DNA from: Thermoanaerobaculia bacterium
GTDB lineage: Bacteria > Acidobacteriota > Thermoanaerobaculia > Multivoradales > Multivoraceae
Length of the DNA: 64,000 bases
Assembly (NCBI GenBank): GCA_963666565.1
Contig: OY762911.1
Location: 4,672,001-4,736,000, forward strand
Direction of reading: 5' to 3'
The translations under genes were made by a program, and so were the position numbers. Numbering within the stretch: the first letter of the stretch is position 1; each line of letters begins with the position of its first letter. A model generated the notes under the pieces. The model saw only the letters and a list, made by a program, of their open reading frames with translations, ran no database searches and was not told the origin of the DNA. Positions 3 to 62,522 of this stretch are shown piece after piece.

Positions 3-1226
3 CTGCTCGCGCCCGAGGCCCCGGACCGCGCGATCCCCTTCGGCCGCCACGTCGGCGAGCCGGCCTGGCAGGAGGTGCCGGGCGAGTACCGGGCCATGCT
101 CCGGCGCCTGATCGTGATCCAGGGCGACACGGAACCCGCGTCCGTCGAGCAGCAGCGCTTCCTCGGCAAGACCGCGCCCTCGCTCTACGACATGCGCAAC
201 CTCTTCCAGGTCAACGTCGAGGAGGGGCGGCATCTCTGGGCGATGGTCTACCTGCTGCAGAAGTACTTCGGCCGCGACGGCCGGGAGGAGGCCGGCGAGT
301 TGCTGCGACGCCGGTCCGGCTCCGACGACGCCCCGCGCATGCTCGGCGCCTTCAACGAAGAGACGCCGGACTGGCTCTCCTTCTTCCTGTTCACCTTCTT
401 CACCGACCGCGACGGCAAGATGCAGCTCGAGTCGCTGGCCCAGTCCGGCTTCGACCCGCTGTCGCGCACCTGCCGCTTCATGCTGACGGAAGAGGCCTTC
501 CACATGTTCGTCGGCGAGAGCGGAGTGACCCGTATCGTCCAGCGCACCTGCGAGGCGATGGCGGCGGCCGGCATGGACGACCCCGGCGACATCGAGGCCG
601 TGCGCGCGCTCGGCGTGATCGACCTGCCGACGATCCAGAAGAAGGTCAACCTCCACTACTCGCTGACCCTCGACCTGTTCGGTTCCGAGCTGTCGACGAA
701 CTCGGCCAACTTCTTCAACGCCGGGCTCAAGGGCCGCTTCCGCGAGCACCGGCTGGAGGACGACCACCGGCTGCTGGACGACACCTACGGGATCCTGGAA
801 CCGTCGAACGGCGCCAATTCGAAGGGCGGCTGGCACGTCGTCCAGCATCCGGCGCTCAACGCCCTGAACGCCCGCCTGCGCGACGACTTCACGGACGACT
901 GCAACCTCGGCGTCGGCCGCTGGAACAAGACGATCCGGCAGACCGGCGTGGACTTCGAGATCGCGCTGCCCCACGTCGCCTTCCACCGGCAAATCGGCGT
1001 CTACCGCGACCTGCACGCGACGCCCGAAGGCGAACTCGTCTCCGAGGACGAGTGGAATCGCCGTCGCGACGAGTGGCTTCCCGACGACGCCGACCGCGCC
1101 TTCATCGAGTCCCTGATGGAGCCGGAGTTCCGGCCCGGCCGCTACGCCTCATGGATCGCCGAACCGAGGATCCGGATCAACCACAAGCCGGGCGACTTCG
1201 AGTGGGTCAAGCTCGCCGAGGCGTAG
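3..1226 (+). CDS. boxB: benzoyl-CoA 2,3-epoxidase subunit BoxB (5' truncated by the window edge)
   Basis: Frame is open from base 3. FGRHVGEPAWQEVPGEYRAMLRRLIVIQGDTEPASVEQQRFLG, diiron ExxH motifs (EEGRHLWAM, EEAFHMFVGE) and FFTDRDGKMQL are characteristic of BoxB. Confidence 0.92.
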   Translation: MLAPEAPDRAIPFGRHVGEPAWQEVPGEYRAMLRRLIVIQGDTEPASVEQQRFLGKTAPSLYDMRNLFQVNVEEGRHLWAMVYLLQKYFGRDGREEAGELLRRRSGSDDAPRMLGAFNEETPDWLSFFLFTFFTDRDGKMQLESLAQSGFDPLSRTCRFMLTEEAFHMFVGESGVTRIVQRTCEAMAAAGMDDPGDIEAVRALGVIDLPTIQKKVNLHYSLTLDLFGSELSTNSANFFNAGLKGRFREHRLEDDHRLLDDTYGILEPSNGANSKGGWHVVQHPALNALNARLRDDFTDDCNLGVGRWNKTIRQTGVDFEIALPHVAFHRQIGVYRDLHATPEGELVSEDEWNRRRDEWLPDDADRAFIESLMEPEFRPGRYASWIAEPRIRINHKPGDFEWVKLAEA

Positions 1227-1348
1227 GGCTGCCTGACGCCGCAAGCAGACGACCGGCAATCTCGCGGGCTCCTTCGCGCCCTGGCTCGCTTCGGCGGCGG
1301 GAGCCGGGCGCATCGTGCCGCGGGTTTACGGATAGCGGCGCCAACTCC

Positions 1349-1933
1349 TCAGGGGTACAGCAGGCCCCTTCGCCAGGAGTCGCCGTCCCGTTCGTAGAAC
1401 GTCCGGTCGTGGAGCCGGTGCTCCCGGGCCACCCAGAACTCGAAGCGCCGGGGCACGACCCGCAGTCCCGTCCAGTGGGGCGGGCGCGGCACCTCGCGGC
1501 CGGCGAATCGCTCGTTCACCCGCTCGAAGTCGGCGAGAAGCTGTTCCCGGCTTGCCAACGGCCGGCTCTGCCGAGACGCCCAGGCGCCGAGCTGGCTGTT
1601 CCGAACGCGGGTCGCGAAGTAGGCGTCGGCCTCGGCCTCGCCGACCCGCTCGGCGCGGCCGAAGACGCACACCTGCTCCTTCGGCTCCCGCCAGAAGAAG
1701 TTCAGGCTGACGTCGGGCCGCGCCAGGATCTCCCGGCCCTTGCGGCTCTCGAGATTCGTGTAGAAGACGAAGCCGTCCCGGTCGAAGTGCTTGAGCAGCA
1801 CCACGCGGGACGACGGGCGACCCCGCTCGTCGGCGCTGGAGACCACCATCGCGTTCGGCTCGGCGAGGCCGGTGGCCGAGGCGCGCTCGAAGAGATCGCG
1901 GAAGCGATCGAAGGGGTCGGCGGCGGGTGCCAT
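1349..1933 (-). CDS. pdxH: pyridoxamine 5'-phosphate oxidase
   Basis: EPNAMVVSS, PSSRVVLLK, FYTNLESRKG, SQLGAWASRQS, EFW..REHRLHDR and a terminal LYP; start placed at ATG 1933 (MAPAADPF). Confidence 0.93.
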   Translation of the reverse strand: MAPAADPFDRFRDLFERASATGLAEPNAMVVSSADERGRPSSRVVLLKHFDRDGFVFYTNLESRKGREILARPDVSLNFFWREPKEQVCVFGRAERVGEAEADAYFATRVRNSQLGAWASRQSRPLASREQLLADFERVNERFAGREVPRPPHWTGLRVVPRRFEFWVAREHRLHDRTFYERDGDSWRRGLLYP

Positions 1934-2012
1934 GGGCGAACTCTTACCGATCCCGCGTCCCGGGCCAACCCCGCCGGCCCGCTTCGCCGCCGTGTGAAAC
2001 GATTGCCGGCCC

Positions 2013-3050
2013 ATGAAGGTCGGCGTCCTCCAGTTCTTCTCCTGGCCGGACCGGCGGATTCCGCTCGATCAGGTCTACCACCGCGCCTTCCAGCGCATCG
2101 ACATCATGGAGCGGAACGGCTACGACGCCGTCTGGCTCGCCGAGCACCACTTCAGCTCGTTCAGCATCTGCCCGTCGATCCACATCATGGGCACCCACGT
2201 GGCCGCGAGGACGGAGAACCTCCGCATCGGCACCGGCGTCTCACTGGCCCCGTTCTACAACCCGCTGCGGTTGGCGGAGGAGGTGGCGCTGCTCGACGTG
2301 CTGTCGGGCGGCCGGGTGAACTGGGGCGTCGGCCGCGGCTACCAGGAGGGCGAGTTCAAGGCCTTCGGCGTCGACCCGCAGCACAGCTACGAGGTGTTCC
2401 GCGAGCACGTCCAGACCGTGATCGGCGCGTGGACGGAGGAGCGCCTGACGTTCGAGGGCGAGCACTTCCGGTGCGAGGACGTCGAGGTGCTGCCGAAGCC
2501 GGCGCAGCGGCCGCACCCGCCGGTGTGGTTGGCGGCCTCCTCGCCGGAGGCGATGAACTGGGCCGCCGAGAACGGATTCTCGATCATGCTCGACCCGCAC
2601 TCGGCGCACACCCGGATCGCCCGGAAGCGGGAGCTGTACCGGGGCATCCTGGAGGACCACGGACACTCGATCGAGGGCCGGGAAATCCCGATGGCCCGCC
2701 TGATCGCCTGCGCTCCGACCCGTGCGGAGGCGGAGCGGATCGCGCGCCAGGGCGCCGAGTGGACGGTCGGCTCGCACAAGAAGAAGGGCGTGCGGGCGGC
2801 CAGGGTCGAGAGCAGGCTCAACCGCGACCTGAGCGATCTGGCCCAGGACCACATCTTCAAGGACTCGGCGACCCGGTCCGCCATCGACCGTTACCTCGAC
2901 GGCGTCATCGTCTACGGCACGCCGGACGAGTTGATCGACGAGATCGCGCGGCTGAAGGAGGAGATGTTCCTCGACTACCTGCTGCTAGCGCCCCTCAGCC
3001 ACAGTTCCTTCGTGCTGTTCACGGACGAAGTGCTGCCCCGCGTCGTCTGA
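2013..3050 (+). CDS. luciferase-like (LLM class) flavin-dependent oxidoreductase
   Basis: AVWLAEHHFS, NPLRLAEEVALLDVLSGGRVNWGVGRGY and PKPAQRPHPPVWLA motifs. Confidence 0.9.
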   Translation: MKVGVLQFFSWPDRRIPLDQVYHRAFQRIDIMERNGYDAVWLAEHHFSSFSICPSIHIMGTHVAARTENLRIGTGVSLAPFYNPLRLAEEVALLDVLSGGRVNWGVGRGYQEGEFKAFGVDPQHSYEVFREHVQTVIGAWTEERLTFEGEHFRCEDVEVLPKPAQRPHPPVWLAASSPEAMNWAAENGFSIMLDPHSAHTRIARKRELYRGILEDHGHSIEGREIPMARLIACAPTRAEAERIARQGAEWTVGSHKKKGVRAARVESRLNRDLSDLAQDHIFKDSATRSAIDRYLDGVIVYGTPDELIDEIARLKEEMFLDYLLLAPLSHSSFVLFTDEVLPRVV

Positions 3051-3054
3051 AAAC

Positions 3055-3200
3055 CCGCTGGGTGCGCGGGTCTTCCGACCCGCCCACGTGCGGTGCCGCG
3101 GAGCCGCCCGGCCGGACGACAGGGCGGCCGGCCGGAGGCCGGCGCGACTCACTTGGCCGCCTCCGGCGGCAGCGGGTCAGAGGACCCGCGCACCCAGCGG
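3055..3200. repeat. inverted pair of REP-like palindromes (REPIN-like), consensus CTGGGTGCGCGGGTCTTCCGACCCGC
   Basis: Copy at about 3058-3083 and reverse-complement copy at about 3172-3198, between convergent genes; internal hairpin GCGGGTC-N4-GACCCGC. Confidence 0.85.
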
Positions 3201-3214
3201 CTACGTCTGCCGCT

Positions 3215-3526
3215 TCAGCGACGGCGGCCCTTGAACACGTACGACAGGCCCTCTTCGGCGAAGGCGCGGCACGCCTTGTCCTTGAACTCCACCGCCTTGT
3301 CCCATTCCTCGACGTCGTAGTAGTCGCGCTCGGCGACGACCCGGATCTCGCGCACCGTACGCTCGTCGAGATCGAGGCGCTCCGCGATCTCGCGGTCCGA
3401 CAGGCCGCGGCGCCGCTTCTCGCCCGGCAGGTGCTCGTGGATGTCGACCTGGATCGAGTTCGACAGCTCCAGGATCTCCTCGCGGTGGCGGCGGTAGGTC
3501 TCGGGATCGACAAAGAAGAAAGCCAC
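3215..3526 (-). CDS. small hypothetical protein with an HTH-like segment
   Basis: AAGGAG RBS before the GTG start; GLSDREIAERLDLDERTVREI resembles a helix-turn-helix; last gene of the QueG-like operon. Confidence 0.75.
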   Translation of the reverse strand: MAFFFVDPETYRRHREEILELSNSIQVDIHEHLPGEKRRRGLSDREIAERLDLDERTVREIRVVAERDYYDVEEWDKAVEFKDKACRAFAEEGLSYVFKGRRR

Positions 3527-46769: not shown

Positions 46770-51353
<4,584 letters not shown>

Positions 51354-51462: not shown

Positions 51463-51522
51463 TTCCGAGTGAACTCGCGCGAGGCGCCAGCCTCGCTCCT
51501 TCCTGTTGAGAGGGCGGCAGGC

Positions 51523-53022
51523 ATGGGCAAGGACACCGGCTTCAAGGAGTACGCGCGCGCCGCGGTTCCCTACCAGGATCCGCTGATCCGCCTGAGTCAC
51601 TACGGCGAGTTCCTGGCGCCGGTGCCGGAACAGCACCTCGCCACCCAGGGCGCCCGCTGCATGGACTGCGGCGTCCCCTTCTGCCAGTCCGACGAAGGCT
51701 GCCCGATCGACAACCTGATCCCGGAGTGGAACGACCTCGTCTACCAGGGCCGCTGGAAGGAAGCGCTGCGGCGCCTGGAGAGGACGAACAACTTCCCCGA
51801 GTTCACCGGCCGCGTCTGCCCCGCCCCGTGCGAGGGCGCCTGCGTGCTGGGGATCACCGACCCGGCGGTGACGATCAAGAACATCGAGAACGCGATCGTC
51901 GACCGCGGCTTCGAGGAGGGCTGGATCGTTCCCCGCCCGCCCGTCAGGCGCACCGGCAAGAAGGTCGCGATCGTCGGTTCCGGGCCGGCGGGACTCGCCG
52001 CGGCGGCTCAGTTGAACGGCGTCGGCCACTCGGTCGCCGTCTTCGAACGCGAGGACCGCATCGGCGGCCTGCTGATGTACGGCATCCCGAACATGAAGCT
52101 CGACAAGCGCCTGGTCGTCGACCGGCGGATCGACCTGATGCGGGCCGAGGGCATCGAGTTCGTGACCGGCGCCCACGTCGGCGTGAACGTCGACGCCGCC
52201 GATCTGCGGCGCGACCACGACGCGATCCTGCTCGCCTGCGGCGCGACGAAGCCGCGCGATCTCCCCATCCCGGGCCGCGAGCTCGCGGGCGTCCATTTCG
52301 CGATGGACTTCCTGACCGAGCACACCCGTGCCCTTCTCGACGCCGATCTGCCGAGTGACGGCGCCCACCCTGTCCAGGCGCCGATTCACGCATCCGGAAA
52401 GAACGTCATCGTGATCGGCGGCGGCGACACCGGCGCCGACTGCATCGCGACCGCAGTGCGCCACGGCTGCGCCTCGCTGGTTAACTTCGAACTGCTGGAG
52501 CGGCCGCCGGACGACCGGGCCGCCGATAACCCGTGGCCGGAATGGCCCCGCATCTTCCGCGTCGAGTACGCGCACGCCGAAGCCGCGGCCCGGTTCGGCG
52601 CCGACCCGCGCGTGTTCTCCGTTCTCTCCAAGCGCTTCGTCGACGACGGCGCCGGCGGCGTCGCCGGTATCGAGACCGTCCGCGTCGCCTGGAAACGGGA
52701 CGCCGGCGGCCGCTTCGCGATGGAGGAAGTGCCCGGAACCGAAGAGACCTTCGAGGCCGAACTCGTGCTCCTGGCAATGGGCTTCCTCGGCCCCGAAGCG
52801 ACTCTCGGCGAGCGCTTGGGCCTCGCCACGGACGAGCGCAGCAACTTCGCGGCAGAACCCGGCCGGTACGCGACCTCGGTCGAGGGGGTCTTCGCCGCCG
52901 GCGACTGCCGCCGCGGACAGAGCCTGATCGTGTGGGCGATCGCCGAGGGCCGCGGCGCCGCGGCCCGGATCGACGAGTACCTGACCGGGGCCACCGAACT
53001 GCCGCTGCCGTCGGCGCTCTGA
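51523..53022 (+). CDS. gltD: glutamate synthase small subunit
   Basis: [44 protein letters not shown] and [14 protein letters not shown]. Confidence 0.97.
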
Positions 53023-53229
53023 CCACCCTCCGTTCTGGTCGAACAGATCGAACACCTCGATGCGGCATCCCACCGCGCGAACCCGACAGGTGTGCTCTTG
53101 ACTCCTCGGAGGAGGACATCAGGGACTACTCCACCGGCGAGCTTCCAAGGGCGATGTTCAACTGAGATGGGCTGCACCAAGAGGTGCCCTCACTCCATCT
53201 CTGCACCCCCGCCTTCGCGGCCGTCGACA

Positions 53230-53600
53230 AGGCCTTGGCCGCTCGGCGCCCCAACGCGCCGCTTGAAGCCGCGCCCTACCACACGCCCCATCACGACGGA
53301 ACCTGATCCCAACTCAGAGTCCAGAAGCCGAGCGACCGCCGAGCTACTCGCCGCCCACAACCAGTCGATCACCAGCGCATCGAACAACGCACCGAAACGA
53401 GAGTCTCCCTCCGACCAGGGTGCGCTGATCGTGAGAACCCCCGTGCTCCGCGCACCGCACGCGGAGCACGTCCGCGGCCAAGATGGTCCGGTACGCTGCC
53501 GGATACGGGGGTCCCGATCTCGGCATCGCAGGTACCTCCTCCTACGAGGAGGAAGTGCCTGCGGAACCGGGGCAAGCTCAACTCGTCCCCCTTCGATTCG
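53230..53600 (-). pseudogene. degenerate ISL3-family transposase fragment
   Basis: APWSEGDSRFGALFDALVIDWLWAASSSAVARLL..MGRVVGRGFKRR resembles the ISL3 N-terminal zinc-finger/HTH region; no catalytic domain follows. Confidence 0.65.
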
Positions 53601-53645
53601 GAAGGCCCCAGTGGTCTTCCGCCTTTCCCCCGGCATGCGACAAGG

Positions 53646-54257
53646 TCAATGAACGTCTTCGGAGAGCCAGTACCCGAACGCTTTCTCCAGATTCTCTCTG
53701 GCAGAGCTAACCGCTTGGCGCACATACTCGGCTTCAGAATCGGCACGAATCCGACTCAGCTCTCGCCGAACCGTAGTCAGGATCCGAGTAGCATTGCGCA
53801 TATCGGGATGCCGTGCATACGGGCGAAGGGCACGACGATGTTCCAGAAGTGCGCGGAGACTCCAATCTCGCAGTTCTGGGTGGCTGTACATGGGCTCTGT
53901 CGTTCTCGTGTCTGAGACACCATCCAAGATGCGAAAGACGATCGTCGCTTTGTAGTTCTCTGCAGCCATCCAGTCTGGATCATGCCAAGAGTCGAGTCTA
54001 CTAAGGGCGTTCTCCACTCGCGTCGGAACCTCGACGTCGATCAGGCGCACCATGCGATCCTCTTCCTTCGCTTCGGCGAATTCTCCTTGGAAAAACGAAA
54101 AGAGAATCGGCAGGGAGACAACGGCTAGAGAAGGCAGTAGAGCCACAAAGAAAGGCTCGTTCAGGAAACGCCATAGGCCTCGGCGCTGTCCCTTCATTGG
54201 GCCAGGCTCACAAGTGGCCTGTATCTTCGATTCGTCGGCTGACGCGCTACTCTTCAC
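53646..54257 (-). CDS. hypothetical protein with an N-terminal transmembrane segment, lower GC
   Basis: 203-aa ORF with PFFVALLPSLAVVSLPILFSFF; visibly more AT-rich than the flanks; directly downstream of the silent receptor cassette. Confidence 0.55.
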   Translation of the reverse strand: MKSSASADESKIQATCEPGPMKGQRRGLWRFLNEPFFVALLPSLAVVSLPILFSFFQGEFAEAKEEDRMVRLIDVEVPTRVENALSRLDSWHDPDWMAAENYKATIVFRILDGVSDTRTTEPMYSHPELRDWSLRALLEHRRALRPYARHPDMRNATRILTTVRRELSRIRADSEAEYVRQAVSSARENLEKAFGYWLSEDVH

Positions 54258-54328
54258 CCAAAGCGTCTCCCTGGTGTCAGCGGTTCCGAGAGAGTAGGGG
54301 GCCTCTGGCTGGGGGCGCTCAACCTAGC

Positions 54329-56737
54329 CTAGAAGCTGAACCGAGCGCCAATCTGTAACTGACGCCAGGACGTGACTCGGCCGGACGGTATGCCGAGGTC
54401 TTCGGGAACTACGCCGCCCTCCACGTTTCGCTGGCTGAAGCCGACCGCGAAGCTGTGTTCGTCGAATAGGTTAAAGGCCTCGACGAACACGTCCAGGCGC
54501 ATTTCATCGCCGAACCGGAAGAACCTGCCGACGCGGACATCGACCGTCTGGAGCGACTCGTTCCTGAAGGTGTTTCGTCCTACGACGGAACCATCGATGA
54601 TGGCTCGGTAGTCGGGGCAGTTGAAGATGGGCCACCCGCAGCCGATACTGTCGAAGCCTCGGACGGGTGTGTCGCGGTCGTTCACATCAACGGCCGTGTA
54701 CGGCGTTCCCGACTGGTAGTTCAGGATGCCGGAGATCTGGAAGTCGGCCGGCAACTGGACCATGCCCGTAACTACGAGCCGGTGCTTCACGTCACGATCC
54801 GAGAGGCCCCAGTCGTAGTCCAGGTTGCCGGTGTCGGAGATCGTGACGCCGGTCGCCGAACGCTCGTTCGAGTCGGTGTCGCGATCCTCGCCCCAGGTGT
54901 AGTGGGCGCCGAACTGGTAGCGACCGGTGAAGCGCTTGTTCGCCTTGAGCGTGACCGCCTGATACTCGGACTCGCCCCGAGACTGGCGAACGAGGACTTC
55001 GGCGCACCGGATTTCGTCGAGACCCGGGCACACGTCATTGCGGCCGGCCCACATCGGGCGGCCGTACGGGTCGTAGCCGCCGAAGACCCGGTTGAAGTCC
55101 GTGTTGCGCTGCAGGCTGGTCGCTTCGGCATACACGGCATCGACGCCGGCGCTCCAGCCGCCGCCGAGTTCCCGCTCCCAGCCGACGCTGGCGCGCAGCG
55201 TTTGGGCGTCGTCGAACTCGGGATCCACGTACGAGATGGCGGGAATGATGCCCGGCGGCGGGTTCTCGTTGTCGATCTGCGTCCCGAGCGGCACGTAGCC
55301 GTTCTGGCCGGGACGAACCGTGATGCGACCGTAGTTCGGCGGTACGCCGTTGGCCTGAACCTGGTTGGCGAACAGCAGGGTGGGCGTGCGGCCGAAGAAG
55401 AAGCCGATGCCGCCGCGGAGGACCGACCGGCCCTCGTCCTGGGACCTGGCGAAGCCGAAGCGGGGCGCCAGGTTCTCGGTGTCCGGGATCTGGCGGCCGT
55501 CCGGGTGCAGGTGATCCAGGCCGTCCGGGTTGTCCGTGGACGTATAGCGGAGGCCGTAACTGATTGTCACGTTGTCCCGCTTGAGACTGTCCTGCCCGTA
55601 GAAGGCGAGGGCCTCCTGAGTCTCGTCGTAGTTCGGGTACGTCGAATCGCCGAACCAGATTCGCGCCCGGAAAGCCTCGTTGCTCAAGAAGTCCTCCGGC
55701 GAGCCGAAGTCATAGCGGCCGTCGCGGCTGCCGGCGAAGAGCTGCGCCAGATCGTCCTTCGAGTAGTCGACGCCGAACTTCATGTCATGGGCACCGAACA
55801 GGTAGGAGAAGTCGTTCTTGACCTGGAGCTGCTCTTCCTCAACGAAGATCGGGAGGAAGTCGAACTTGCCAACGCTGTCAAACTCGTCGAAGAAGAAGCG
55901 GACCTGCGCCTCGATTGGCGTGCCGACCCGCTTGGACAGGCGATCCAGATTGTCCGTCGCGGACTGAATCCGGAACTCGTTGACGCCACGGCTGCCGACG
56001 ACCGAGGTCATCGATGCGATGATGGACAGCGTGTCCTCCGTCTTCAGCGACTCCTCGTCCAGGTAGTCGCTCTCCCGCTCGAAGTCCGTCACATTGGCGC
56101 GCAGGGTGATGAGGTTCGAGTCGTTGATCTGGTGGTCCAGCTTGCCGAAGAGGATCTGGTTGCTCACCGAGCGCAGGAACAAGCCGGTGGCGGAACCGTC
56201 GGCGTTTCGCTCGAAGCCGTCGACCAGAGCCGCGAATCCGGGCTCTGTCTCCGCCCTCTTCATGATCAGGTCGTAGGTGCTGTTGACGCCGGTCGAGCGC
56301 AGCGAGCGGGAGAACGGGATGTCCTGGTCGCGGAGGTCGACGCCGAAGTAGTAGTGGGTGCGATCCTGCTTGAACGGACCACCGACCGAGAAGCCGTAGT
56401 TCTGGGTGTCGAACTCGTCCACCGGTCGCGAGCCGTCACGGCCCCGGAAGTCGTCGAGAGGCGACGAAGGAATGTCCTCGGCCATGCTGTCGTCGCGGAA
56501 CTGGTAGAAGGCCGAGCCCCTCATCTCGTTCGTGCCGGACTTCGTGACCACGTTGACGAAGGCGCCGCCGTGCCGGCCGTACTCGGCCGAGAAGCCGTTG
56601 GTGATGACCTGGAACTGGCGAACCGTGTCCTGGGCGATGATCAGGCCGTCGTTCTCGGTCGCCTCGCCGCCCCGGCCATAGCCGAAGAAGGTGCTCTTGT
56701 TGTCCGCGCCGTCAACGGAAAGGCCGCTGTACATGCC
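54329..56737 (-). other. 5'-truncated, open-frame TonB-dependent receptor cassette (alternative barrel allele)
   Basis: 801 codons collinear with the 59067-61445 portion of the intact receptor; in-frame TGA two codons upstream; no signal peptide or N-terminal domain; ends in QIGARFSF. Confidence 0.9.
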
Positions 56738-56894
56738 TCACTGGTCGGGCTTCAGTTCCATGAAGGTCCGAAGAGCAGGAGAGAGTCCGGGAACAACCGA
56801 GAACTCCTGTAGACACCGTCACTTGTGAAGGTCTCGTTACGTTGCCCAAGGCCGCGGATGCGGTTGACGGCAAACGGCAAATCGCCGACGGGAT

Positions 56895-56922
56895 TGGGGG
56901 AAGTGGGGGACACGGTGAGGGA
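56895..56922 (+). promoter_or_regulatory. candidate integrase arm-type binding repeats
   Basis: TGGGGGA (56895), TGGGGGA (56904) and TGAGGGA (56916) direct repeats just upstream of the integrase. Confidence 0.4.
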
Positions 56923-56955
56923 GTGCCATACGGCCGTCCTTGCTATGTTCGAGCG

Positions 56956-58092
56956 ATGCCCCTTACCCAACGGAGAGTCGACGCCGTCAGACCCACCGGC
57001 CGGCCCTTCAAGCTGTACGACCGCGACGGCCTGATGCTCAGGGTCACCGCCGCCGGCAAGAGCCGATGGGTCTGGAGAGGCGTCGTCAAGGGAAAGCGGA
57101 TCGAGGTCGGCATGGGCTCGACACGTTTCCGCTCGCTGAAGGAGGCAAGGGAGGTCGCCTTCGAGAATACGAGAACGGCGAGACTGGGAGGCGATCCCAG
57201 AGCGGCCGTGTCCTCTGACGTTCCGACCTTCAGGGAAGCCGCGACGCTCTATCTGGAGATCCAGTCCACCGATTGGGGAGAGGCCCACTCCCGCCAAGTC
57301 AGACGGATGCTGGAGCGCCATGCGTTCCCGGGCTTCGGGGACCTTCCGGTAGACGAGATCCAGACCGCCGACGTGATGCGGGTTCTGGTACCGCTGTGGC
57401 GGCGTCAGAGGCCGACCGGACAGCGGCTCAGGCAGAGGATCGCCGGCGTCATGGCGTGGAGCGTAGCGGCGGGCTACCGGGCCGACGATCCGACGAGCAC
57501 TCTCTCGGCGGTCTTGCCCGCCGGCCGGACGCGGCGGAAGCACCATCGCTACCTGCCCGCCGTCAAGCTGCGCGAAGCACTGGTCAAGGTGCAGGACTCC
57601 GGAGCATGGATCGGAACGCGGTTGGCCATGCGCTTCCTGGCGCTGACGGCGGCGCGCTCCGGCGAGGTGCGTGGAGCGAGGTGGCGGGAGATCGATCTGG
57701 AGTCGGTCACGTGGACCGTTCCCGCCTCGCGGATGAAGGCGCGCCGTGAGCACCGGGTCCCCCTCTCCAGCGCGGCCCTTGCGGTCCTTGAGCGGGCCGG
57801 CGGACTTCGGGGTCGGGGCAGAGGGCTCGTCTTTCCCGGCGTCCAGGGGAAGATGGTCGGTGTGTCGGTGTTCGGTCGGCTGCTGAGAGACCTCGATATC
57901 GATTGCAGCCCGCACGGGTTCCGCAGTGCGTTTCGGTCGTGCTGCTCCGACGAGGGGATCGACCGGGAGTTGGCGGAACAGGCCCTGGCACACGCGGTCG
58001 GGAGCCAGGTCGAGCAGTGCTATGCGCGAAGCGACGTGCTGGAGCGCCGCCGAGACGTCATGGAGGCTTGGGGTGCGTTCCTGGTCCAGTAG
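56956..58092 (+). CDS. P4-like tyrosine integrase with an arm-binding N-terminal domain
   Basis: MPLTQRRVDAVRP..KLYDRDGLMLRV arm domain; catalytic R (TAARSGE), K (RMK), HxxR (HGFRS), H (LAH) and Y (CYAR) are intact; TG-C-TATGTT lies 6 nt before the ATG. Confidence 0.93.
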   Translation: MPLTQRRVDAVRPTGRPFKLYDRDGLMLRVTAAGKSRWVWRGVVKGKRIEVGMGSTRFRSLKEAREVAFENTRTARLGGDPRAAVSSDVPTFREAATLYLEIQSTDWGEAHSRQVRRMLERHAFPGFGDLPVDEIQTADVMRVLVPLWRRQRPTGQRLRQRIAGVMAWSVAAGYRADDPTSTLSAVLPAGRTRRKHHRYLPAVKLREALVKVQDSGAWIGTRLAMRFLALTAARSGEVRGARWREIDLESVTWTVPASRMKARREHRVPLSSAALAVLERAGGLRGRGRGLVFPGVQGKMVGVSVFGRLLRDLDIDCSPHGFRSAFRSCCSDEGIDRELAEQALAHAVGSQVEQCYARSDVLERRRDVMEAWGAFLVQ

Positions 58093-58334
58093 CGGACGGA
58101 CCGGACATGCAGGGCCGTGGTCCAGGCTCGCGCCGCAGCTTCGCCGCGGCGCGGGGGGCTTTCCCAGGGGCAATCCAGTCCCCTGGGCGGAGCCACGGAG
58201 CTGGCCCTGCCGTTGGCTCATAGACAGCCGGATCGAGCGCCTCCGCGAAGGCTTCAACGCCCCGGCGGAGACTCTCCGCGTGAAGTCCGCGAACCGTGCC
58301 GTCGATTCAATATCTTGAAGCGAGCCGCCCTCCG

Positions 58335-58364
58335 TTGACGGGGGGCGAAGCGATTCTCTATAGT
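58335..58364 (+). promoter_or_regulatory. sigma70-type promoter of the TonB-dependent receptor
   Basis: TTGACG-N18-TATAGT, about 150 nt upstream of the GAGGAG RBS and ATG 58512. Confidence 0.55.
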
Positions 58365-58511
58365 CGTACCCGGTCTGTGGCCTTGCGCGCGAGCGCCCCA
58401 CCACCGCCACCCACTCGGACAATCGAGAGACCTTCCACGCGTGAAGCGCACGCCGGTGAATTCGTGCCGAATTCGACGGCGCCTACTCAGACACAGAGGA
58501 GAAACCCCACC

Positions 58512-61445
58512 ATGCAGTCGACCCGCCTCCGGGCACGTCTTCTTGCGACCCTCCTGGCAACGGCCTGCGTCCTCCTGATCGGCGGCGCCGGCTTCGCCCA
58601 GACGATCACCGGCACCGTCCAGGGCTACATCTCGGATGTCGAGGGCGGCCCGATTCCCGGCGTCACGGTGACCGTCACCAACCAGGACACCGGCATCGCC
58701 CGCGCCGCCATCGCGGACGCCAACGGCTTCTACAGCGCCAAGGCGCTCCAGGTCGGCACCTACTCGGTGACCGCCGAACTCGCCGGCATGCAGACCACGC
58801 AGCAGAGCGACGTCTCCGTCCTGGTCGGCCAGATCAAGGACGTCAACCTGACCCTCGAGGTCGAGTCGACCTCCGAGGTGATCACCGTCACGTCCGAGGC
58901 CCCGATCATCGAGGTCAGTCGTTCGGGCGCCGCCAACTACATCGACGAGGTCGCCATCGAGAGCCTGCCGATCGTCGGCCGCGACTTCACCGACTTCGCG
59001 ATTCTCACTCCCGGCGTCCAGCGCGACCGTTCCCGCGGCTTCCTGACCATGGCCGGTCAGCGCGGCATGTACAGCGGCCTGTCGGTCGACGGCGCGGACA
59101 ACAAGAGCACCTTCTTCGGTTACGGCCGCGGCGGCGAGGCCACCGAGAACGACGGCCTGATCATCGCCCAGGACACGGTGCGCCAGTTCCAGGTCATCAC
59201 GAACGGCTTCTCGGCCGAGTACGGCCGGCACGGCGGCGCCTTCATCAACGTCGTCACGAAGTCCGGCACGAACGAGCTCAGGGGTTCGGCCTTCTACCAG
59301 TTCCGGGACGACAGCATGGCCGAGGATCTGCCGTCCTCGCCGCTCGACGACTTCAACGACCGCGACGGCTCGCGTCCGGTGGACACGTTCGACACCCAGA
59401 ACTACGGCGTCTCGATCGGCGGGCCGTTCAAGCGCGACCGTACCCACTACTATTTCGGAATCGACCAGCGCGACCAGGACATCCCGTTCACCCGGTTCCT
59501 GACCAACCGCGGCGGCAGCGTCTATGACCTGGTCATGCAGCGAGCGCAGAGCGAGCCCGCCTTCGCCGCCCTGGTGGACGGCTTCGAGCGAAACTCCGAC
59601 GGCTCCGCCACCGGCCTGTTCACGCGCTCGGTGAGCAACCAGATCCTGTTCGGCAAGCTGGACCACCAGATCAGCGACGCGAACCTGATCACCCTGCGAG
59701 CCAACTGGACGGACTTCGAACGGGAGAGCAGCTTCCTCGACGAGGAGTCGCTCAAGACGGAGGACACGCTGTCGATCATCGCGTCGATGACCTCGGTCGT
59801 CGGCAGCCGCGGCGTGAACGAGTTCCGAATTCAGACGGCCGACGACAACCTGGATCGCCTGTCCTTGCGGGTCGGCACGCCGATCGAGGCGCAGGTCCGC
59901 TTCCGCTGGAACGGCGCGAGCGTCGGCAAGTACGACTTCCTGCCGATCTTCGTGGAGGAGTCGCAGCTCCAGGTCAAGAACGACTTCTCCTACCTGTTCG
60001 GCGCCCACGACATGAAGTTCGGCGTCGACTACTCGAAGGACGACCTGGCCCAGCTCTTCGCCGGCAGCCGCGACGGCCGCTACGACTTCCGCTCGCCGGA
60101 GGACTTCCTGTCCAACAACTCAAGCGCCGCCCGGATCTGGTTCGGCGATTCGACCTATCCGAACTACGACGAGACCCAGGCGGCTCTCGCCTTCTACGGC
60201 CAGGACAGCCAGAAGCGCGACAACATGACGATCAGCTACGGCCTCCGCTACACGTCCACGGACAACCCGGACGGTCTCGATCATCTGCATCCGGACGGCC
60301 GCCAGATCCCGGACACCGAGAACCTGGCGCCCCGCTTCGGCTTCGCCATGGCCCAGGACGAGGGCCGGTCGGTTCTCCGCGGCGGCATCGGCTTCTTCTT
60401 CGGGCGCACGCCCACCCTGCTGTTCGCCAACCAGGTTCAGGCCAACGGCGTGCCGCCGAACTACGGCCGCATCACCGTCACTCCCGGCGAGAACGGCTAC
60501 GTGCCGCTCGGAACGCCGATCGACAATGAGAACCCGCCGCCGGGCATCATCCCCGCGATCTCCTACGTCGACCCCGAGTTCGACGACGCCCAGACGCTGC
60601 GCGCCAGCATCGGCTGGGAGCGGGAGCTCGGCGACGGCTGGAGCGCCGGAGTCGACGCCGTGTACGCGGAGGGCACGAGCCTGCAGCGCAACACGGACTT
60701 CAACCGCGTCTTCGGCGGCTACGACGAGTACGGTCGCCCGATGTGGAACGGCCGCAACGAAGGAACCTGCCCCGGAGTCCCGGGCGCCGAATGCGCCGAG
60801 ATCCTGGTTCGGCAGTCCCGCGGCGAGTCCGAGTACCAGGCGGTCACGCTGAAGGCGAACAGGCGCTTCACCGGCCGCTACCAGATGAGCGCCCACTACA
60901 CCTGGGGCAAGGATCGCGACACCGACTCGAACGAGCGTTCGGCGACCGGCGTCACGATCTCGGACACCGGCAACCTCGACTACGACTGGGGTCTCTCGGA
61001 CCGCGACGTCAAGCACCGTCTGGTGGTCACCGGCATGATCCAGTTGCCGCTCGACTTCCAGATCTCGGGCATCGTGAACTACCAGTCGGGTACCCCGTAC
61101 ACGCTGGTCGACAACGGCGTCGACTGGGCTTACTGTCGCACGGTCGGCTGGAACTGCCCGGACTACCGTGCGGTGATGGACGGCGTCGTCGTCGGCCGGA
61201 ACACGGAGCGGAACGAGTCGATCCAGACGATCGACGTTCGCCTCGGCAAGTTCTTCACCTTCGGCGACGGCATGCGGCTCGACGTCTTCGTCGAGGCGTT
61301 CAACCTGTTCGACGAGAACAGCTTCGGCGTCGGCTTCAACCAGCGCAACATCCGCAACGGCAACGTTCCCGACGACTTCGGGGTCCCGTCGTACCTGACG
61401 ACGCGCCCGCGCCAGTTGCAGATCGGAGGCCGGTTCAGCTTCTAG
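58512..61445 (+). CDS. TonB-dependent receptor (Oar-like, with an N-terminal carboxypeptidase-regulatory-like domain)
   Basis: Signal peptide ending GFA-Q; GTVQG..GGPIPGVTVTVTN; LPIVGRDF; FSAEYGRHGGAFINVVTKSGTN; NLAPRFGFA; C-terminal QIGGRFSF (terminal Phe typical of outer-membrane barrels). Confidence 0.93.
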   Translation: MQSTRLRARLLATLLATACVLLIGGAGFAQTITGTVQGYISDVEGGPIPGVTVTVTNQDTGIARAAIADANGFYSAKALQVGTYSVTAELAGMQTTQQSDVSVLVGQIKDVNLTLEVESTSEVITVTSEAPIIEVSRSGAANYIDEVAIESLPIVGRDFTDFAILTPGVQRDRSRGFLTMAGQRGMYSGLSVDGADNKSTFFGYGRGGEATENDGLIIAQDTVRQFQVITNGFSAEYGRHGGAFINVVTKSGTNELRGSAFYQFRDDSMAEDLPSSPLDDFNDRDGSRPVDTFDTQNYGVSIGGPFKRDRTHYYFGIDQRDQDIPFTRFLTNRGGSVYDLVMQRAQSEPAFAALVDGFERNSDGSATGLFTRSVSNQILFGKLDHQISDANLITLRANWTDFERESSFLDEESLKTEDTLSIIASMTSVVGSRGVNEFRIQTADDNLDRLSLRVGTPIEAQVRFRWNGASVGKYDFLPIFVEESQLQVKNDFSYLFGAHDMKFGVDYSKDDLAQLFAGSRDGRYDFRSPEDFLSNNSSAARIWFGDSTYPNYDETQAALAFYGQDSQKRDNMTISYGLRYTSTDNPDGLDHLHPDGRQIPDTENLAPRFGFAMAQDEGRSVLRGGIGFFFGRTPTLLFANQVQANGVPPNYGRITVTPGENGYVPLGTPIDNENPPPGIIPAISYVDPEFDDAQTLRASIGWERELGDGWSAGVDAVYAEGTSLQRNTDFNRVFGGYDEYGRPMWNGRNEGTCPGVPGAECAEILVRQSRGESEYQAVTLKANRRFTGRYQMSAHYTWGKDRDTDSNERSATGVTISDTGNLDYDWGLSDRDVKHRLVVTGMIQLPLDFQISGIVNYQSGTPYTLVDNGVDWAYCRTVGWNCPDYRAVMDGVVVGRNTERNESIQTIDVRLGKFFTFGDGMRLDVFVEAFNLFDENSFGVGFNQRNIRNGNVPDDFGVPSYLTTRPRQLQIGGRFSF

Positions 61446-61500
61446 GCTGAGCGGTGCCAGAGCAGCCGCGGCGCCCGAGGCCGCGGCAAAGAGAAATCGA

Positions 61501-61532
61501 GGGCCTCCCCAGCAACGGGGAGGCCCTTCTTC
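61501..61532 (+). terminator. intrinsic terminator hairpin
   Basis: GGGCCTCCCC-AGCAAC-GGGGAGGCCC followed by TTCTT, between convergent genes. Confidence 0.75.
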
Positions 61533-61553
61533 GTCAACGATCGCGGAGCGGCT

Positions 61554-62522
61554 TCAGAGCCGGAGAAGTCGAAGGAGTTCCGCTTCGTCGGCACACATCT
61601 GCGCCGCCTTGGCGATCTCGACCTCGGACAAGCCGCGGAGGCCGGCCAGGCGTTCGGCAAGGTCCGGGCTCGTCGGTACGCCGCGCGCATCGAGCACGGC
61701 GACCGCCATCCGGGCACGCCCTGCGGCGAGGCCCTCGTCACGGCCCTCGTCGCGCTCAGCTCGCAGCCACGGATCGTCGTCCGGGCCGGTACCCTCGAGC
61801 GCGCCCATAGCGCGGCCCACGCGACGGAGAACCTCCAGGGTCTCCGGCGACGGCAGGTCGCGGCTCAGGGCAACGTGGATCTCTTCGGCGGTCCAGCCCG
61901 GAAAGGCCCGGCTGGAGGCCGCTTCCCGGAAGCGCTCGCCGTGGTGAAGGTGAATCGTCAGACCGGACAGCAACGACCTCGGATACGAGCGTTCGTCCGG
62001 CACGTCGATCCAGACCTCCGGGAAGCCCCAAGCCTCGTACAGCGGCAGCTTCCACAACCGCGCGTCGGTCGAGTAGTCGACTTCCAGCACGACGTCCGGC
62101 AGTTCGCCGCCGTCAATGTCCACCCGCGCCCCGGCCGGCAACGCGGCCGGATCCAGGTAGAGGATCTGGTCGGCCTGCATCAGCACCCTGTACCCGCCGT
62201 CAGCCTTGGCGCGCACCAGATCCGCCGTCCCCAACGTCTCGATCGGCGCGCCTCTCGACGCCGCGATGCGCTCGGCCAACCTGGCCAACCGCTGCGAGGG
62301 GCGCTCGTGATAGACGGTCGTCGGTTCGCGCAGGACCATGGCCCGCTCCGTGCGTTCCTCCCAGTACTCCACGCGGCCCTCGTAGTCGTCGATCCGCTCC
62401 TTCGGGATCCGAACCGTCCGGCAACCGGACTCGGCGGCCAGGGCCAGCGGCGATGCAACCGGCTCGGGACGTCCCGCTTCCGGCGGCCGCGGGTTCGGGG
62501 TTCGGACGGGCGGTTCAGCCAT
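61554..62522 (-). CDS. Uma2-like putative endonuclease
   Basis: MQADQILY, LPDVVLEVDYST..KLPLYEAWGFPEVWID and an E.RDEGRDEG tail; TACGCT 6 nt before ATG 62522. Confidence 0.75.
   Translation of the reverse strand: MAEPPVRTPNPRPPEAGRPEPVASPLALAAESGCRTVRIPKERIDDYEGRVEYWEERTERAMVLREPTTVYHERPSQRLARLAERIAASRGAPIETLGTADLVRAKADGGYRVLMQADQILYLDPAALPAGARVDIDGGELPDVVLEVDYSTDARLWKLPLYEAWGFPEVWIDVPDERSYPRSLLSGLTIHLHHGERFREAASSRAFPGWTAEEIHVALSRDLPSPETLEVLRRVGRAMGALEGTGPDDDPWLRAERDEGRDEGLAAGRARMAVAVLDARGVPTSPDLAERLAGLRGLSEVEIAKAAQMCADEAELLRLLRL

Follow-up and report, generated by a model that had tools for sequence, protein, structure and literature searches.

A promoterless TonB-dependent receptor barrel joined to an integrase on a genomic island: a candidate receptor-barrel swap in a sponge-associated acidobacterium

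In a 64,000-nucleotide (nt) window of the Thermoanaerobaculia contig OY762911.1, a predicted Oar-like TonB-dependent receptor gene points away from a truncated, silent copy of its own barrel, with a tyrosine integrase gene between the two. The host is a sponge-associated acidobacterium whose genome (G000) was assembled as a single 4.79-Mb contig; G001, G012, G031, and G036 are relatives from the same genus, and all coordinates are positions in the window unless another locus is named. We consider the locus a plausible and evolutionarily supported, but unproven, receptor-barrel swap. Integrase-driven inversion between two short cores may exchange the barrels of the receptor, an explanation that we find quite possible while stopping short of calling it probable. 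It is favored because the silent cassette is under selection, because the inverted cores offer one simple route, and because one of them marks the end of the integrase module.

In the proposed mechanism, the integrase would recombine the two inverted cores, J1 and J2, which lie 2.3 kb apart. The 2.3-kb segment with the integrase gene, the promoter, and receptor codons 1–184 would thereby invert. This would place the promoter and N-terminus in frame ahead of the cassette barrel and silence the resident one, until a second flip restored the original state. Since the barrels differ mainly in their surface loops, a flip would alter what the cell exposes. The anatomy of a programmed inversion is present at the locus: intragenic inverted repeats flank the promoter and the 5′ end, the alternative 3′ body has no promoter, and the integrase gene lies inside the segment. 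The sequence data establish this anatomy, the nature of the locus as an island, where the junction lies, and the selection on the cassette. The occurrence of the inversion, its catalysis by this integrase, and its purpose are what we infer; evasion of phages or of immunity would be one conceivable purpose.

Receptor gene, silent cassette, and integrase

The receptor gene (58512–61445, + strand) encodes 977 amino acids (aa), in which Pfam recognized a CarboxypepD_reg domain (PF13620, 65.2 bits, cut-off 32.3) and an OMP_b-brl_4 domain (PF25183, 231.2 bits, cut-off 30). Judged by this domain content, the product is an Oar-like TonB-dependent receptor. The ribosome binding site (RBS), AGGAG, is found 10 nt upstream of the ATG at 58512, and a sigma70-like promoter is predicted at 58335–58364 (+; TTGACG-18-TATAGT, 10 of 12 positions, a match to the consensus only), the sole such site in 52900–61700. 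The 5′ part of the gene (codons 1–184; 58512–59063, +) specifies the signal peptide, the CarboxypepD_reg domain, and the start of the plug, as indicated by Pfam and a structural model. The remaining plug and a 22-strand barrel form the resident barrel B1 (59064–61445, +), the orthologue of the single receptor gene in other genomes of the genus. Such an orthologue was present in 35 of the 36 other genus genomes first searched, nearly always as a single full-length gene with 84–88% identity.

The silent barrel cassette B2 (54329–56737, −) consists of codons equivalent to 185–977 of the receptor, covers the final 80% of a divergent receptor allele, and has no promoter, start context, or signal peptide. 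Its reading frame stays open for 801 codons from an ATG at 56734, with GGC and an in-frame TGA directly upstream; the start of the cassette, GGC ATG, corresponds to receptor codons 185–186. When aligned with receptor residues 186–977, the cassette was identical at 681 of 802 aligned residues, and the four gaps, 11 residues in total, were each made of whole codons. The inverted homology as a whole pairs 54326–56748 with 59053–61448 through five colinear inverted-repeat segments of 75–90% complementarity. Neither a second copy of the receptor promoter and 5′ part nor another close copy of the barrel was found in the G000 genome, in which the next best match was 32% identical.

Between the copies (56738–59063) lie the integrase, the sigma70-like site, the AGGAG RBS, and receptor codons 1–184. 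The integrase gene (56956–58092, +) is intact and encodes a 378-aa protein of the P4/CP4-57 type, with three Pfam domains, all above their curated cut-offs: PF13356 (Arm-DNA-bind_3, 48.2 bits), PF22022 (Phage_int_M, 81.3 bits), and PF00589 (Phage_integrase, 59 bits). The NCBIfam model NF007246 scored 148 bits, below its cut-off of 434 bits, and the PDB matches were to integrase N-terminal and central domains. The motifs HGFRSAFR and YARSD, visible in the translation, may belong to the catalytic R-K-H-R-H/W-Y set. G000 holds one copy of this integrase. A 556-codon open frame (56752–58422, −) runs antisense to the entire integrase gene and ends 18 nt before the cassette ATG; its frame differs from that of the cassette, and it is probably an artefact of high GC content.

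These findings agree with the initial annotation of the stretch, which had described two opposed receptor copies, the right one complete and the left one truncated after an in-frame TGA, around an intact tyrosine integrase; every feature was located where it had been placed. The same holds for a 17-mer common to both copies, GGCATGTACAGCGGCCT, at 56721–56737 (−) and 59064–59080 (+). This 17-mer is, with the same bases, present in 14 of the 19 orthologous receptor genes examined, and is thus a conserved coding motif, not special to the locus. A crossover within it would fuse codon 184 in frame to the cassette, so that the inversion geometry and the in-frame fusion are as the initial annotation had drawn them.

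The differences between the two barrels were mapped on an AlphaFold2 model of the resident receptor (predicted local distance difference test, pLDDT, 80.3; predicted template modeling score, pTM, 0.76). The secondary-structure string of the model has 22 strands, with inner turns of 2–5 residues and long outer loops, and the protein ends in F. On this model, differences affect 72 of 359 predicted extracellular-loop residues and 39 of 433 residues elsewhere (Fisher p = 1.3e-5), being strongest in loops 2, 4, 8, 10, and 11, with an 8-residue insertion in loop 10. Such loop-centered differences would fit a change of the exposed surface.

The receptor leader gave no riboswitch in the Rfam search, which returned one weak match below its gathering score. 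This match, to ncS011 (61495–61639, −), scored 25.3 bits against a gathering score of 48; its position overlaps that of a strong terminator-like hairpin (61500–61527) located just 3′ of the receptor gene, on the opposite strand.

Selection, junction, and island

G031, a second species, has the same arrangement at 93% identity, which allowed the cassettes of two genomes to be compared. Over 799 codons, they differ by 94 synonymous and 35 nonsynonymous changes, corresponding to a synonymous divergence (dS) of 0.19 and a ratio of nonsynonymous to synonymous divergence (dN/dS) of 0.10 (binomial p against neutrality, 3e-32). This ratio is as low as those of gltB and the resident barrel: for the same pair of genomes, dS and dN/dS were 0.205 and 0.115 in gltB, 0.24 and 0.19 in the receptor N-terminal part, 0.32 and 0.146 in the resident barrel, and 0.184 and 0.145 in the integrase; a dS of 2.49 for gltD was dropped as an alignment artefact caused by indels. 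Cassette and resident barrel differ from each other with a dS of 0.42 and a dN/dS of 0.24.

Because tracts imported from expressed genes could mimic constraint, the changes specific to the cassette were separated out. Among 120 single-difference codons, both states were also seen among resident genes in 75, while 44 changes involved a state that none of the 19 resident-type genes has. These 44 comprise 32 synonymous and 12 nonsynonymous changes (p = 7e-12), where neutrality would lead to about 34 nonsynonymous ones; on the G000 lineage alone, the counts are 20 and 6. On the evidence of these substitutions, the cassette is under strong purifying selection and behaves as a coding sequence, not as a pseudogene. 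As it has no promoter, start, or signal peptide of its own, selection of this kind implies that the cassette must periodically be expressed after joining the 5′ part. Decay of the cassette had been raised in the initial annotation as a contrary sign, and this was seen in part: the dN/dS is not near 1 and the G000 copy is intact, but the G031 copy is broken.

A tree was built from the 5′ partition only (546 columns), the 3′ partition being left out as the G031 piece is out of frame. In this tree, the cassettes of the two genomes are monophyletic (support 100/99), with a long stem, and branch outside the resident gene of every species, and by this topology the cassette lineage is old and distinct. 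Among 184 informative quartet sites, 170 separate cassettes from resident genes, 11 group sequences within a genome, and 3 group them crosswise; the minority patterns are unclustered, with a longest run of 2. Sliding distances agree, the nucleotide divergence between cassette and resident barrel being 0.145 over the whole alignment (about 86% alike). Hence, no mosaic exchange between cassette and resident barrel was detected by quartet sites or sliding distances. Barrels left whole in this way fit an exchange at one fixed crossover point.

The position at which the cassette is truncated coincides with the end of the integrase module. An alignment of 14 upstream regions showed that the module begins about 215 nt before the integrase start codon, with a conserved 5′ region, or spacer (56738–56955, +; aligned in 12 of the 14 copies), presumed to be the arm and promoter region. 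The spacer is shared with more distant copies of the integrase at 66–72%, from 56737/56758 onward. In both G000 and G031, the module starts immediately after the 17-mer. The J1 core (56721–56737, −), between cassette and module, is therefore bordered by the point from which the module copies are homologous, and the attB-like J2 core (59064–59080, +) lies in the resident gene, inverted relative to J1. On the receptor N-terminal side, partial similarity to the module end extends over about 13 nt. As the module terminates exactly at the truncated end of the cassette, the integrase is tied to that site.

In a second group of integrase copies, located next to a methyltransferase-type gene, chromosomal DNA directly borders this module end. 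Comparison with the empty site in G000 placed this junction at the predicted base, in a target that likewise starts with GGC and has TCGGTCG 12–18 nt in. Because the equivalent module end is a mapped element–chromosome junction there, the junction between cassette and spacer can be regarded as an att-type junction of this integrase family. Three copies from different genomes (L031, L033, and L043) occupy one site beside a 127–128-aa gene with a 6-O-methylguanine methyltransferase DNA-binding domain, whose open frame reaches the element end; the matching empty site is L129 (G000:C1:1358880-1362203).

The initial annotation had missed that cassette and integrase are carried by a 5.2-kb island (53023–58188) inserted at the gltD 3′ end. 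The region is an insertion because in G001 gltD is directly followed by the receptor promoter region; two contigs of that genome show the empty site, with nothing between the two. The island consists of a lower-GC segment X, the cassette, the integrase module, and a 96-nt tail Y. The cassette–integrase junction was found in two of the 42 genus genomes (G000 and G031); 39 matched the receptor part of the probe only, and one gave no match.

The core gene gltD (51469–53022, +; Pfam Pyr_redox_2 and Fer4_20), for the glutamate synthase small subunit, lies downstream of gltB (46770–51353). Its present end contains an attL-like repeat (52987–53011, +), which by eye shares 20 of 25 bases with an attR-like relic of the original gltD 3′ end (58189–58213, +), where resident DNA resumes. 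The relic agrees with the gltD end of G001 in 22 of 25 bases and is the sole match to that end in the window (0.00 expected by chance). Consistently, the spacer between gltD and the receptor gene in G012 and G036 aligns from about 58182 onward. When a motif common to the gltD att-like repeat and the receptor core was sought, only short GC-rich similarities were found.

Segment X (53023–54325) has a GC content of 0.55–0.63, compared with about 0.70 in the flanks, and three open reading frames (ORFs) in it gave no Pfam or NCBIfam match. It is not shared with the G031 island, as no homology to 538–3389 of the G031 locus (L028) was observed. A 203-aa ORF (53646–54257, −) in the lowest-GC part of the island (0.55–0.59), absent from the G031 island, matched no Pfam or NCBIfam family. 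Tail Y (58093–58188), which extends from the integrase stop to the gltD relic, is specific to the island; of the 42 genus genomes, none but G031 has it besides G000.

The island appears to have a history apart from that of the genomes carrying it. Between G000 and G031, its dS of 0.18–0.19 is lower than that of nine neighboring core genes (0.27–0.93, median 0.41). The nine were picked from 31 ORF rows (G+C content at third codon positions, GC3, ≥0.82 and dN/dS < 0.4) after the table was seen; two rows with a GC3 of 0.83 and a dN/dS above 0.4 (dS 0.16 and 0.21), probable antisense or partial frames, were excluded. By this comparison, the island copies seem younger than the genomes, which fits interspecies transfer and the patchy distribution.

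Relatives of the integrase were found at 18 other loci in the species genomes, most with about 88–89% identity and in differing surroundings. Other copies adjoin housekeeping genes, followed by element genes such as that for a TraG-like coupling protein, and the integrase belongs to a multi-copy family of mobile integrative elements. In L032, L033, L036, and L047, direct repeats of the integrase 3′ end (127–270 nt, 83–88% identity) occur 4–6 kb downstream of full-length copies, with several in L047. The repeats suggest tandem accretion, or an att site overlapping the integrase 3′ end in part of the family.

Orientation of the segment and alternative explanations

Among read data, the stretch was present in Logan contigs from 4 runs on 3 samples of 1 study, and no RNA run was listed with it. 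Mismatch-free contigs in the 4 runs span 52527–54866, which joins gltD, segment X, and the cassette, and 56684–59117, which includes both cores; depth over cassette-specific and resident-specific pieces was alike in the run contigs. The piece 56684–59117 is its own mirror in either state and hence blind to orientation. A metagenome scan with the spacer–cassette junction pattern gave 0 matches, and a scan with the cassette protein gave 43 loci, of which 3 were orthologue-like (83–88%) and the others had 40% identity or less. A 978-aa member of the cassette cluster, considered as a possible fusion product, was rejected, being an ordinary orthologue slightly closer to the resident gene (87% identity) than to the cassette (85%). 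Two receptor relatives in a public collection, P0058 and P0060 (786 and 792 aa, on contigs of 2.5 and 17.3 kb), begin with MYSGLSVDG and MAGQRGIYSG, at the cassette truncation point or 6 residues before it, and may be further truncated cassettes.

Several observations weigh against a functioning switch. The second orientation, which the initial annotation had suggested looking for in relatives, was not found: both genomes with the junction, G000 and G031 (2 of 2), are in one state. No strand-changing joint was among those listed for the run contigs, which have 115 loose ends outside that listing, break at 31-mers common to the two barrels, and cannot tell orientation. A cassette-type full-length protein was absent among 247 proteins (E ≤ 1e-100) from a collection of 5.8 billion, none of which, besides the cassette itself, matched the cassette at more than 87% identity. 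The G031 copy of the cassette contains a premature TAG (codon 176) and a +1/−1 indel pair that compensates itself, and is interrupted by an 8.25-kb insertion (L028 4169–12420) whose flanks overlap by 9 nt. The insertion has a different tyrosine integrase at its edge (L028 11335–12738, −), together with an ISL3 transposase and a gene resembling that of a terminase large subunit; ISL3 is present once more in that genome, between gltD and the cassette. The attR-like gltD relic is absent in G031.

Other points of this kind concern the integrase and the island. J1 has only one element arm, and integrases that depend on arm sites may fail to recombine such a junction with a bare core. The enzyme is an arm-binding integrase of an integrative family, and a large inverted repeat occurs at just 1 of the 18 other integrase loci, arranged as in G031. 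The direct repeat of the gltD end offers the integrase an ordinary job in integration and excision. The island is absent from 40 of the 42 genus genomes and is therefore dispensable. Finally, a loop-biased divergence is usual for any diverging pair of TonB receptors.

Much of this would be expected if the cassette were an inert by-product, that is, if an element had entered the receptor gene and rearrangement or transfer had left an unexpressed, slowly decaying, truncated barrel. The island nature of the locus, its patchy presence (2 of 42 genus genomes), and a gltD repeat resembling an att site are in keeping with such an origin, as are a cassette–integrase junction that is an ordinary element terminus, a G031 copy broken by a stop and a second integrative element, and searches that found neither a flipped form nor a cassette-type full-length protein. 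What it leaves unexplained is the selection, with a dN/dS of 0.10 at a dS of 0.19 and 12 nonsynonymous changes in 44 against about 34 under neutrality; moreover, all four alignment gaps are whole codons and there is no stop in 801 codons. We judge this origin unlikely. The cassette could instead be a functional reservoir reached by RecA-dependent recombination or gene conversion over the 2.4-kb inverted homology, the integrase serving only for integration and excision of the island. The copies share nine identical tracts of at least 31 nt (the longest 58 nt), the integrase is of the integrative, arm-binding type, and within-genome quartet sites are in slight excess over crosswise ones (11 vs. 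3, p = 0.057), while 75 of the 120 single-difference codons have both states among resident genes. However, no exchanged block was seen, as 170 of 184 sites separate cassette and resident and the longest other run is 2; the copies are only about 86% alike, and sequence divergence depresses homologous recombination. Exchange through RecA appears improbable to us.

Excision followed by re-integration would be a further route, in which a circle of the island integrates at the receptor core and displaces the resident barrel as a direct repeat, the inverted state being parked or secondary. The order of spacer, core, and cassette resembles an attP whose far arm copies the 3′ part of its target, and some integrative elements restore the gene they enter. 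Direct att-like repeats flank the island, which could excise in G000, and its dS, below that of the nine core genes, suggests interspecies transfer. This route, which we hold to be quite improbable, has against it that the direct-repeat arrangement is in none of the 42 genus genomes, that no full-length protein of the cassette type was found, and that one integrase would need two att specificities. Lastly, the assembly might have joined receptor alleles of two strains in inverted order, given a metagenome-type source and runs in which related species co-occur, with many partly fitting contigs. Yet the genome is a single 4.79-Mb contig, G031 repeats the arrangement at 93% identity, and mismatch-free contigs in 4 runs span 52527–54866 and 56684–59117 with equal depth over both barrels. 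Such a strain chimera, a concern already voiced in the initial annotation, is near refuted and can hardly be believed.

Integrase-driven inversion between the two cores is the explanation that we prefer. The two-state switch put forward in the initial annotation is upheld in its geometry, in the selection on the cassette, and in the integrase module ending at the truncated cassette end, but not by any second orientation. In a wider form of this proposal, the island would be a transferable receptor-swap module with a promoterless alternative for 80% of the receptor, and its integrase would use a core inside the receptor ORF. On landing in that gene or beside it, the module would give the host a reversible, integrase-driven choice of two surface-exposed barrels, and selection would maintain the cassette lineage as it crosses species; this is possible, but we regard it as doubtful.

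Relation to known systems

In the R64 shufflon, the tyrosine recombinase Rci inverts DNA so that a single surface-protein gene can receive alternative 3′ ends. It acts on short sfx sites, between which lie many small segments; here, one 2.4-kb cassette is homologous to the expressed gene throughout. To our knowledge, Rci has no arm-binding domain. Islands with P4/CP4-57-type integrases insert at the 3′ end of a gene, which they replace with one of their own. Ours is like them: the integrase lies at its edge, the target 3′ end is imperfectly repeated in direct orientation, relatives have the empty site, and its distribution is patchy. It is unlike them in that the target is gltD and not a tRNA gene, in its size of only 5.2 kb, and in that its main cargo, which meets the integrase module at a second att-type junction, is a truncated copy of the neighboring gene. 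Silent cassettes of the pilS/pilE type are used by non-reciprocal gene conversion, from which mosaics result. They share with our locus a promoterless partial copy that selection keeps open, but no mosaic was seen here.

The closest known system is the susC-like shufflon of Bacteroides thetaiotaomicron (BT1040/BT1042/BT1046), in which the action of the tyrosine recombinase BT1041 was demonstrated by PCR, amplicon sequencing, and a recombinase mutant (Porter et al., bioRxiv 10.1101/521070). As described there, both loci contain one full-length TonB-dependent transporter gene with 5′-truncated copies and a tyrosine recombinase gene, and recombination within the 5′ region of the ORF transfers promoter and 5′ end to another body, as we propose for the present locus. 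The BT1041 shufflon, according to the same preprint, has direct and inverted repeats and involves whole operons in a member of the Bacteroidota, whereas our locus would have two states only, has no SusD, and belongs to the Acidobacteriota. In addition, its receptor is Oar-like, its recombinase is an arm-domain integrase on a mobile island, and it is known from sequence alone.

Among predicted gene-altering inversions, TonB-linked outer-membrane proteins were reported to be overrepresented (Milman et al., NAR 2023, PMC9881135). The long-read-confirmed cases described there are from Actinobacteria, Bacteroidetes, Firmicutes, and Proteobacteria, and the main text does not mention Acidobacteria. 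Inverted repeats inside the coding sequence and a nearby recombinase are features that our locus has in common with the SusC/SusD inversions of Bacteroides fragilis presented in that article (PMC9881135). Our literature search, which did not cover supplements, found no publication combining a TonB-dependent receptor, DNA inversion, an integrase, and Acidobacteria. The locus differs from that kind of system in its phylum, its type of receptor, its arm-domain integrase, and its transferable island, and it is no more than a candidate while a single orientation is on record.

TonB-dependent receptors rank among the main proteins of the cell surface, and in other bacteria they are the route by which phages and bacteriocins enter. 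The locus also lends itself well to the study of selection on a silent cassette. If the cassette were never expressed, the strong purifying selection would stay unexplained. If the proposed swap is true, the arm-domain integrase of a mobile element could act as an invertase, and a switch of this kind could itself be horizontally mobile. Recombinational receptor switching, documented in gut Bacteroides, would then extend to sponge-dwelling Acidobacteriota.

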